Below are positions 62,819 through 64,000 of a DNA stretch of 64,000 nucleotides, in pieces. Numbering within the stretch: position 1 is the first letter of the stretch; each line of letters begins with the position of its first letter. Source of the stretch: Flavobacteriaceae bacterium (GTDB taxonomy: Bacteria; Bacteroidota; Bacteroidia; Flavobacteriales; Flavobacteriaceae); the NCBI GenBank assembly GCA_947373225.1, contig CANBWX010000002.1, forward strand, positions 4,970 through 68,969, read 5' to 3'. The notes beneath the pieces are model-generated. The model was not told where the DNA came from. It ran no database searches and was given only the letters and a program-made list of their open reading frames with translations. Position numbers and translations under genes: made by a program.

Positions 62819-64000
62819 ATGAAATACAATCCGAACGAAATAGAGGCCAAATGGCAAAAATATTGGGCCGAAAATCAAACTTTTGCAGCACAGAATAATT
62901 CCCAAAAACCAAAATATTATGTTTTAGACATGTTTCCTTATCCATCAGGAGCGGGACTGCACGTTGGTCATCCACTGGGTTACATCGCTTCTGACGTATA
63001 TTCGAGATACAAGAGACATCAAGGTTTCAATGTTTTGCATCCTATGGGTTACGACAGTTTTGGTTTGCCTGCCGAACAATATGCTATACAAACCGGCCAA
63101 CGTCCCGAAGATACCACATCGGTAAATATTGACGGTGGCGTTGATAAAGATGGAAATAAAATTGCTGGATACCGAAAACAACTCGATAAAATTGGGTTTT
63201 CTTTCGATTGGAGTCGCGAAGTACGAACTTCAAATCCGGATTATTACAAACATACACAGTGGATTTTCATTCAATTATTCAATTCTTGGTATAATAAAAA
63301 AAGCGACAAAGCCGAAGATATTTCGACCTTGATTTCCATTTTCGAAAGTGAAGGAAATGCAAACATAAATGCAGTTTGCGATGACAATATTGCTGTTTTT
63401 TCGTCAAGCGAATGGAAAGCGCTTTCGACAGAAAACCAACAAAAAGTTTTATTACAATATAGACTGACTTATTTAGCCGAAACCGAAGTGAACTGGTGTC
63501 CCGGATTAGGAACAGTTTTGGCAAATGACGAAATCGTAAACGGGGTTTCGGAACGTGGTGGATTTCCTGTGATACGCAAGAAAATGACCCAATGGAGCAT
63601 GCGAATTTCGGCTTATGCAGAACGGTTGTTACAAGGTTTAGAAAAGATTGATTGGAGCGAAAGTATCAAAGAAAGTCAGAGAAACTGGATTGGGAAGAGT
63701 GTGGGAGCGATGGTGACGTTCCCCATCCTATCCTTCCCCGAAGGGGAAGAGAAAGCAAGTCTTGAGCAAAAAAGAGGATATATGACTGGTGGAAATAATT
63801 CTCATTTATTGCTTGAAAAAGCGAAAGAAATGCGAAATAACCCAACTGAGGCTGAAAAGATATTATGGTTAAATTTAAAGTCAAAAGCATTAGATTATAA
63901 ATTTAGACAACAACATTTAATTGATGACTATATTGTCGATTTTGTTTGTCTTTCTAAAAAGTTAGTAATTGAAGTTGATGGAGGAATTCACGATTTACAA
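62819..64000 (+). CDS. leuS: Leucine--tRNA ligase, 5' part (open to window end), with in-frame DUF559 insertion
   Basis: Manual translation: [13 protein letters not shown]...[16 protein letters not shown] (HIGH motif)...[13 protein letters not shown]...SFDWSRE...NWCP...[15 protein letters not shown], then foreign sequence. Absent from the ORF track because it has no stop in the window. Confidence 0.97.
63722..64000 (+). mobile_element. DUF559 (Vsr-like very-short-patch endonuclease) domain inserted in frame in leuS, preceded by a palindrome
   Basis: [19 protein letters not shown]...[31 protein letters not shown] is the DUF559 pattern; hairpin CTTCCCC-GAA-GGGGAAG at 63733-63749. Confidence 0.88.

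Follow-up and report, generated by a model that had tools for sequence, protein, structure and literature searches.

A DUF559 nuclease cassette with GC-rich arms lies in frame inside leucyl-tRNA synthetase and other enzymes of Flavobacterium

Introduction

The leucyl-tRNA synthetase (LeuRS) gene leuS, situated at the right end of a 64,000-nucleotide stretch of DNA from a Flavobacteriaceae bacterium (GenBank assembly GCA_947373225.1, contig CANBWX010000002.1, positions 4,970 to 68,969; hereafter the window), harbours in frame an insert of 441 bp, or 147 amino acids (aa), which encodes a nuclease of the DUF559 family. The genome has a GC content of 33.6%, and the insert is flanked on both sides by arms that are GC-rich. 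It is interpreted as one copy of a selfish DNA element of small size, made up of an arm, a DUF559 frame and a second arm, which would be translated as an extra domain of the host enzyme and spread in a homing-like manner; a probability of about 0.6 is assigned to this reading. That the insert represents a mobile in-frame cassette is very probable, and the further proposal that its own nuclease drives the movement stands at slightly below even odds.

In the prevailing view, selfish nucleases enter essential genes solely inside a self-splicing intron or intein. The cassette apparently does without this wrapping: surface hairpins of LeuRS, isoleucyl-tRNA synthetase (IleRS), methionine synthase (MetH) and DNA helicases simply accommodate it as an additional domain, with dozens of copies in a single genus. 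The nuclease in LeuRS had been noticed in an earlier note on this DNA, made from the sequence alone; the structured GC-rich arms, the replacement of host residues, and the nuclease-less derivatives that occur both in frame and between genes had escaped that note.

Results and discussion

The insert and its host gene

The window corresponds to G000:C2:4970-68969 (G, C and L numbers denote genomes, contigs and loci), and contig C2 extends 602 bp beyond it; this extension was used to read the right junction. The leuS open reading frame (ORF), as read from the sequence, starts with an ATG at window position 62819 and is free of stops to the window end and also in the extension, where LeuRS resumes at AVFTTRPDT. 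The 5' part of the gene (62819..63721, forward strand), coding for LeuRS residues 1-301 and matching Pfam tRNA-synt_1 with E=7e-22, is normal up to GAMVTF, after which the insert begins at 63722. The insert occupies C2:68691-69131 and ends 162 bp past the window; its 3' end reads NAVVPPSGARGI (also given as HELLNAVVPPSGARGI) before LeuRS continues, and its visible part includes the motifs FRQQH and YIVDFVC. Pfam analysis of the visible ORF revealed tRNA-synt_1 at residues 11-156 and DUF559 (PF04480) at residues 333-392 (window 63815-63994).

The earlier note had placed a DUF559 domain in frame inside LeuRS at the entry to the CP1 editing domain, and had pointed out that a frame ending after the nuclease would mean a disrupted gene. 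The former is borne out by the ORF from 62819 and by the hidden Markov model (HMM) match to PF04480 (E=2e-20). As for the latter, the frame stays open, TTRPDT follows the insert in the extension of C2 and KMSKS is seen in relatives; the resumption of LeuRS past the insert refutes a simple disruption. Relatives with the same insert possess intact LeuRS ORFs of 1130-1186 aa in which KMSKS is present. The NCBIfam model leuS_bact matches C2, and as the sole other leuS piece is a C-terminal end on C108, leuS is single-copy in the assembly. An assembly artefact was considered and rejected, because the same architecture recurs in many independent genomes, complete ones included.

The unoccupied form of the site is evident from the closest congeners, in which 30 of 30 LeuRS alleles have a β-hairpin with a 10-residue tip at the position of the insert. 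The cassette stands in place of this tip, at the entry to the CP1 editing domain. A different cassette lineage, found in G009 and G032, enters the same hairpin 2 residues further on.

Absence of intein, intron and internal start

The cassette is not an intein, nor is it a known intron or ribozyme. Its junctions read F|P on the N side and GI|A on the C side and carry none of the intein junction residues, with Pro at the place of an N-side Cys, Ser or Thr and no His-Asn followed by Cys, Ser or Thr on the C side. Pfam detected no Hint domain on the visible ORF, in which only tRNA-synt_1 and DUF559 were matched, and an insert of 147 aa is too short for a Hint domain plus a nuclease. Rfam covariance models gave 0 matches at E≤1 across the 2072-bp leuS region. 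The absence of an intein motif at the junction, remarked on in the earlier note, is hence confirmed, and its suggestion of an intein-like lifestyle without splicing is supported by the comparative evidence given below.

The nuclease frame has neither a start nor a stop codon of its own. An internal start at the Met of GYMTG was examined and rejected, since the cassette does not finish with a stop codon from which a free nuclease could result; moreover, this Met is not kept among lineages (GYKTA, KYLTG, QTWETA), which makes a conserved internal start unlikely.

The cassette could in principle be removed before the protein is mature, either by RNA excision guided by the arms or by unconventional protein splicing or proteolysis followed by reassembly, and the arms could pair or fold in RNA too. 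However, the cassette lacks a Hint or intein domain, junction nucleophiles and any Rfam family at E≤1. The left and right arms of an element may differ while each is self-consistent, which suggests that the arms fold singly and that left does not pair with right. Furthermore, nuclease-less relics and single arms are kept stop-free in frame, as expected only if they are translated. Removal is for these reasons considered most improbable, and the cassette probably stays in the mature protein, as far as can be judged from sequence.

The DUF559 nuclease

The nuclease core, of the DUF559/Vsr-like PD-(D/E)XK type by Pfam, PDB and Foldseek comparisons, extends on the forward strand from 63815 to the window end at 64000 and on to C2:69092 (window-equivalent 64123). 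The PF04480 match scores 70-73 bits for the visible part, against a cut-off of 20.6, and 123 bits for the complete domain. The core is preceded by an N-terminal helical lead-in (63752..63814, forward strand) in the AlphaFold2 (AF2) model, which places helices at cassette residues 12-21 and 26-39. In this model the predicted local distance difference test score (pLDDT) is 82-96 for the nuclease core and below 50 for the arm-encoded ends, including cassette residues 1-23.

The nearest solved structure is the DUF559 protein 3HRL (sequence E=4e-18; Foldseek TM score 0.88, root-mean-square deviation 1.8 Å). The catalytic domain of the homing endonuclease I-Bth0305I (3R3P) is found by phmmer at E=0.004 and by Foldseek with a TM score of 0.76 and E=4e-5, and E. 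coli Vsr is a weak structural match (TM score 0.37-0.38, E 0.2-0.9). The nearest characterised enzyme by fold is thus a proven homing endonuclease (I-Bth0305I; PMC3239194). A survey of PD-(D/E)XK enzymes likewise puts VSR, DUF559 and DUF2726 together with 1cw0, 3hrl and 3r3p (PMC3424549).

The putative active site, assigned by homology, comprises the D of IVDF, the E and D of IEVDG and the H of GGIH, all of which are present in this LeuRS copy. Across the in-frame copies, whose pairwise identity is 40-60%, the D, E and D are kept in 52/52 and the H in 51/52, the sole exception being the visibly decayed copy of G111. As a separate observation, Foldseek matches 4-14 include several apicomplexan and ciliate mitochondrial ribosome proteins (TM score 0.43-0.55 on the query), in which a DUF559-like fold seems to have been reused.

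The terminal arms

The left arm of the LeuRS cassette, CCCATCCTATCCTTCCCCGAAGGGGAAGAG (63722..63751, forward strand), contains the hairpin CTTCCCC-GAA-GGGGAAG at 63733-63749 and is a diverged copy of the arm type, as evident from its score of 18 compared to a shuffled maximum of 19; in most copies the arms clearly exceed the scores of the shuffled control. Beyond the window, at C2:69103-69131 (window-equivalent 64134-64162), is the right arm, GTTCCCCCTTCGGGGGCTAGGGGG. The canonical arm in this genome, AGCCCCCTAACCCCCGAAGGGGGAA or its complement, occurs about 30 times. Many of these arms form inward-facing pairs of 97-156 bp with unrelated AT-rich interiors, and others are single. Terminal inverted repeats, typical of MITEs (miniature transposable elements with inverted repeats) and Rickettsia palindromic elements (RPEs), are present in the cassettes; the similar interiors typical of MITEs are not found among the short arm pairs of this genome.

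Across lineages the arms share the build Py1-spacer-Py2-loop(3 nt)-Pu, in which Pu complements Py2 and Py1 mirrors Py2. Positions of T in Py2 are paired with A in Pu in 26 of 27 cases. They are mirrored in Py1 in 24 of 27, compared to a permutation mean of 9.4 and with none of 5000 permutations as high; three registers were tried in this mirror test, the offset-1 register was chosen post hoc, and the arms are related by descent. A fixed-register version gave 4/29, its register being off by one C. The left and right arms of one element may differ while each is internally consistent, so that each arm seems to be selected to fold on itself. From its sequence, the arm build is that of an intrastrand triplex or a hairpin.

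At the protein level the arms are read as PP(A/T)PEGG-like and PPSG(A/V)(R/G)G-like peptides, which form linkers rich in Pro, Ser, Gly and Glu. Four further genes of this genome also contain, in frame, arm elements devoid of a nuclease, at C23:475-629 (reverse strand), C36:18739-18777, C47:3776-3814 and C139:2317-2355, with examples reading KSPLTPEGG...PPSGVGGL and NSPLTPEGGTSND. By sequence motifs alone, these genes appear to encode a 2-oxoacid dehydrogenase E2, MurG, an efflux-adaptor lipoprotein and a UvrD/PcrA-type helicase.

A second arm family in this genome, CCCCACCCCAGCCCTCCCCGAAGGGGAGGGAGC, has the same triplex-type build and is located at C100:6550-6595, C119:1257-1412 and 6116, and C56:5840-5885; it adjoins the upstream side of genes resembling an aminotransferase and CysRS. 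A simple hairpin pattern, CCCCGAAGGGG, overcounts arms, owing to a tandem repeat in G128, and misses variants with other loops. The G128 repeat is a tandem or dispersed unit of 51 bp (TTTCTATAATCATTTCACCCCTTCGGGGTTTTGGAT; C16:33-248 and C14:81424-81699; L144, L149), which holds a CCCC-TTC-GGGG hairpin without a third run; it is unrelated to the arms and swells the pattern counts.

The cassette in other genes and genomes

The earlier note had proposed searching other host genes for the same cassette, and it was indeed found in MetH, IleRS and two helicases. This genome itself holds a second in-frame copy, with both arms intact, in a MetH of 1035 aa (contig C87, L004 3651-4105), where it lies between DDDIEIYQ and FLTLRQQ. 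The MetH copy is 51% identical to the LeuRS copy and shows 92% protein identity to the copy of G126.

Of the 36 congeners sampled first, 11 have relatives of the cassette, and 7 of these 11 have them within open frames 677-1386 aa long; a single LeuRS in this first sample carries two copies. In the genus as a whole, PF04480 is present in 65/151 Flavobacterium genomes. Open frames of at least 380 aa contain about 54 strong matches, in about 41 of the 151 genomes and at eight or more sites. With the nuclease cores gathered by an HMM built from the matches, the cassette was placed at LeuRS site 1 in 16 genomes and LeuRS site 2 in 1, MetH site A in 14 and MetH site B in 5, a UvrD/AddA-like helicase in 9, a RecG-like helicase in 6 and IleRS in 2; one further copy, in a protein resembling a restriction-modification (RM) enzyme, has a nuclease from a different clade. 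Neither LeuRS site 1 nor MetH sites A and B show a visible target-site duplication, and no common target motif is evident across the eight sites. The purine-rich appearance of the empty sites was considered as a target signal and rejected, as loop codons for Lys, Glu, Asn and Gly give the same look.

When the MetH cassette was compared with 5.8 billion proteins, 747 large proteins were matched at E≤1e-10, and the 120 matches listed are all methionine synthases. Some of those listed hold two cassettes, and their annotation is just 'DUF559 domain-containing' or similar. No description of DUF559 cassettes translated inside host enzymes was found in the literature.

Every DUF559 clade examined, in-frame or free-standing (three deep clades), has arms of the same build with a sequence of its own. 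The free-standing sister clade, which has its own start and stop codons, also has its own arm variant. At G010:C1:183-193 kb (L034/L030/L035/L036), four to five free-standing DUF559 genes and fragments lie within 10 kb, each copy flanked by inverted arms AGTTCCCCTCTTGAGAGGGGTTGGGGGTGTG of an arm family other than that of the in-frame clade. Extension of the arm link to ycjD, the DUF559 gene of E. coli K-12, was found too weak and was dropped, the 3' arm being degenerate and a 5' arm absent. The ycjD gene (L163, NC_000913.3 1351280-1351860) ends in a degenerate TM-like arm, CCCTCTCCC-TGAA-AGAGCGAGGG, read as SPSP*, and 3' of it lies a duplicated, decayed version of the gene's 3' end, in which a remnant of GGGTTAGGGG is found.

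Origin, horizontal copying and decay

All 52 in-frame nucleases form one clade (support 94), which is sister to a small free-standing clade; the in-frame habit has one origin. Within this clade the lineages track the insertion site, as evident from 10 changes of site label on the nuclease tree compared to a shuffled mean of 43.5. The supported switches of site are mainly within one gene, namely between MetH sites A and B (starred support 97) and from LeuRS site 1 to site 2 (starred support 96); the UvrD lineage branches beside LeuRS lineage A with weaker support (84-87).

The distribution over hosts is patchy, and on the LeuRS tree maximally so. On the LeuRS host tree, built with the insert columns removed, no carriers of the same lineage are sisters. 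Mapping of presence and absence on this tree, as advised in the earlier note, gave 18 changes of cassette-lineage label compared to 19.4 with shuffled labels, and the starred branches alone require a minimum of 3, 5 and 3 changes in lineages A, B and C, respectively. Three nuclease lineages share one LeuRS loop. Since deletion cannot restore the native 10-residue tip, this pattern implies that the cassette was gained repeatedly or that recombination with empty alleles replaced it.

Horizontal copying limited to the cassette, later than the divergence of the host genes, is shown by the family. Between the MetH copy of this genome and that of G126, synonymous divergence (dS) is 0.29 in the cassette and 0.91-1.07 in the host, so that the cassette is about 3.5 times less diverged; four more pairs are similar. 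Third-position identity in this MetH pair is 0.80-0.95 in the cassette and 0.45-0.70 outside, the shift occurring within a few codons of the arms. At four-fold sites an excess of identity in the cassette is recorded in 5 of 13 pairs (0.63-0.81 vs 0.34-0.52, p<0.005). The LeuRS copy of the window shows no significant excess (0.62 vs 0.53), and the LeuRS pair is an internal control against a generally slow evolution of cassette DNA. The MetH copy of this genome is a younger arrival. The LeuRS copy, with one eroded arm and an intact nuclease, looks like an old, vertically carried member of the family.

Decay of the element is documented at two sites. MetH site B is found empty (IELY-DENGKELEK-FLTLRQQ), with an intact cassette, as a both-arm relic in G024 and G092, and as a one-arm relic in G101, all of these states being in frame. 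LeuRS site 1 holds an ends-only relic in G062 and a decayed nuclease in G111.

The nuclease is under strong purifying selection, with a ratio of nonsynonymous to synonymous divergence (dN/dS) of 0.05-0.22 in the cassettes of 12 pairs. For this LeuRS copy and its G080 ortholog, cassette dN/dS is 0.075, as low as in LeuRS itself (0.11-0.15 in the flanking parts) at a synonymous divergence of about 1. Together with the conserved active site, such constraint would also be expected of a nuclease domesticated to give LeuRS, MetH, the helicases and other hosts a useful activity or regulation, and the earlier note had offered a domesticated synthetase-nuclease fusion, fixed in the family, as its alternative. 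This alternative is contradicted by the patchiness, the three lineages in the same loop and the relics, among them the decayed G111 copy and the ends-only G062. The 30 closest LeuRS alleles are all empty, carriers are scattered over the host tree, and the hosts are functionally unrelated enzymes. Furthermore, the GC content at third codon positions is 0.11-0.26 in cassettes and 0.29-0.37 in hosts, the cassettes being more AT-rich. Domestication is accordingly regarded as very unlikely, and the selfish-element reading is retained.

Proposed mode of spread

The element sits at the tip of a surface β-hairpin at the entry to CP1 and would be translated as an independently folded extra domain of LeuRS. 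Splicing would be unneeded, as a compact domain held by flexible tethers is compatible with the host fold. The nuclease, borne by the fusion protein, may then cleave either an allele that is unoccupied or DNA at the arms. Repair templated by an occupied copy would insert the cassette and at the same time eliminate the few host codons of the hairpin tip. In a variant of this scheme the nuclease would recognise or cut its own arms in a structure-specific manner, copying the element to empty alleles and occasionally to new loops. Moves to new sites are occasional and mostly within the same gene, and decay by internal deletion yields ends-only relics that are still in frame.

Patchy occupancy of the same site by an element younger than its host, as in homing-type elements, is found in the family; for this LeuRS copy the difference in age from the host gene is not significant. 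A link between the nuclease and the arms is suggested by the private arm variant of each DUF559 clade and by the origin of some short elements as deletion derivatives. Also in line with such a link, excess hairpins, counted with the cassettes' own arms removed, occur in 17 of 41 genomes with in-frame cassettes and in 8 of 110 without (p=3e-6, ignoring phylogeny).

The mobile unit could instead be the structured arm pair alone, similar to a MITE, to a repetitive extragenic palindromic (REP) sequence or to a triplex repeat, moved by host recombination, replication errors or another enzyme, with the nuclease as cargo kept for repair, defence or foldability. Arms are indeed far more numerous than nucleases, four other genes of this genome have arms-only elements in frame, and G128, G011 and G062 hold arms or relics with no intact nuclease found. 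Published TM/BoxC triplex repeats are likewise tied to genomic instability, and that paper mentions no endonuclease (PMC4666352). However, the interiors of the arms-only elements are unrelated, which indicates that they are not recent copies of one another, and G024 and G092 at MetH site B are demonstrably deletion derivatives of full cassettes. An arm variant proper to every DUF559 clade examined is hard to explain for random cargo. The invariance of the active site across the 52 copies, save the H of the decayed G111 copy, and the association of excess hairpins with in-frame cassettes also speak for the nuclease. Movement of the arm pair alone is consequently held to be rather unlikely.

Several points weigh against the selfish-element reading with the nuclease as its driver. 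This genome has about 30 arms and 2 nucleases, and G128, in which PF04480 was not found, has genuine arms as well as a relic at the UvrD site that consists of ends only; the numerous nuclease-less arms and G128 imply that the nuclease could be cargo. About 9-10 host codons are replaced, with no visible target-site duplication. The LeuRS copy itself has a cassette dS of 1.11 compared to 0.81-0.86 in the host, with no sign of recent transfer, and the strong purifying selection could partly reflect avoidance of misfolding of an essential host enzyme. The trees were made by a 'quick' method from short alignments, and the LeuRS alleles form a non-random sample picked by length and similarity. Finally, C2 ends inside CP1 and about 1 kb of leuS between C2 and C108 is unassembled; an intact full-length leuS ORF is therefore demonstrated in relatives only.

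Comparison with known elements

In REPIN-RAYT systems a single-enzyme gene lies between inverted short structured repeats, which are also dispersed as enzyme-less doublets and singlets. The RAYT is an HUH tyrosine transposase, and REPINs are extragenic, their doublets being copied as units. The cassette nuclease likewise lies between inverted structured repeats that also occur without an enzyme; its enzyme, however, is a PD-(D/E)XK nuclease, and the doublet interiors are unrelated.

Inteins with a homing endonuclease resemble the cassette in their in-frame location at conserved sites of essential proteins, their selfish spread and their decay to smaller forms. The cassette differs in having neither a Hint domain nor splice residues, at 147 aa in all, and would stay in the mature protein. 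Vsr-like 'EDxHD' homing endonucleases are known either from group I introns or from genes that stand free between the halves of split inteins (PMC3239194, PMC2677866). They share with the cassette the fold (I-Bth0305I), residence in conserved housekeeping genes, site-specific lineages, patchiness and horizontal copying into the same site. In contrast to the known members, which have their own start and stop codons, the cassette has none and appears to be translated within the host protein without a splicing element. Furthermore, I-Bth0305I is a multidomain homodimer with a footprint of about 60 bp, whereas the cassette consists of about 125 aa plus linkers and structured arms.

RPEs are palindromic, lie in frame in unrelated metabolic genes, and are translated and compatible with the fold of the host (PMC10969869). 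The ends-only relics of the cassette behave alike. RPEs carry no enzyme, whereas the full cassette encodes a conserved nuclease, its short forms are at least partly deletion derivatives of the full cassette, and its arms are of the triplex type.

The closest counterpart of the arms is found among the intrastrand triplex motifs TMECO, BoxC and PIT, which are dispersed and frequently arranged as inverted tandems; for TMECO a connection with local genome rearrangement is described (PMC4666352). The TMECO motif CCCTCGCCCC-TCT-GGGGAGAGGG-TTA-GGGTGAGGGG and the cassette arm CCCCC-TTC-GGGGG-TTA-GGGGG have the same build (PMC4666352). The inverted-tandem occurrence is shared as well, the triplex of the cassette arms being predicted from sequence. 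TMECO is described as intergenic, in Enterobacteria and Cyanobacteria, in a paper with no mention of an endonuclease, Flavobacterium or Bacteroidetes, and in-frame TMECO copies were not seen discussed there (PMC4666352).

Implications

These comparisons raise the possibility of a distinct class of autonomous bacterial mobile element. In-frame residence would supply both expression and protection from deletion, the nuclease would work with its own arms, and the decay products would seed protein loops, dispersed triplex repeats and possibly the BoxC/TM repeats of other phyla. This wider proposal is tentative and is advanced with somewhat less confidence than the role of the nuclease in movement. 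If confirmed, the life of the cassettes in essential enzymes without an intron or intein would provide a third way for homing-type elements to inhabit essential genes, give a concrete role to DUF559, a large family of unknown function, and tie a nuclease to the long-unexplained intrastrand-triplex repeats. Core enzymes would, moreover, be seen to acquire new loops and domains naturally from such cassettes. For protein engineering, permissive insertion sites in aminoacyl-tRNA synthetases and a compact, internally fused nuclease could then be useful.

Other variation in LeuRS

LeuRS length across the genus ranges from about 940 to 1386 aa. A second hypervariable spot lies at core positions 664-677 of the alignment (relatives L041-L092); in many species it is occupied by unrelated inserts, 8-82 aa long, that are without hairpin arms or nuclease. 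In addition, the LeuRS frame of L080 (G117:C16) is 1787 aa long, with about 610 aa of unrelated sequence past the normal C-terminus, owing either to loss of the stop codon or to read-through that fuses it with the gene downstream.

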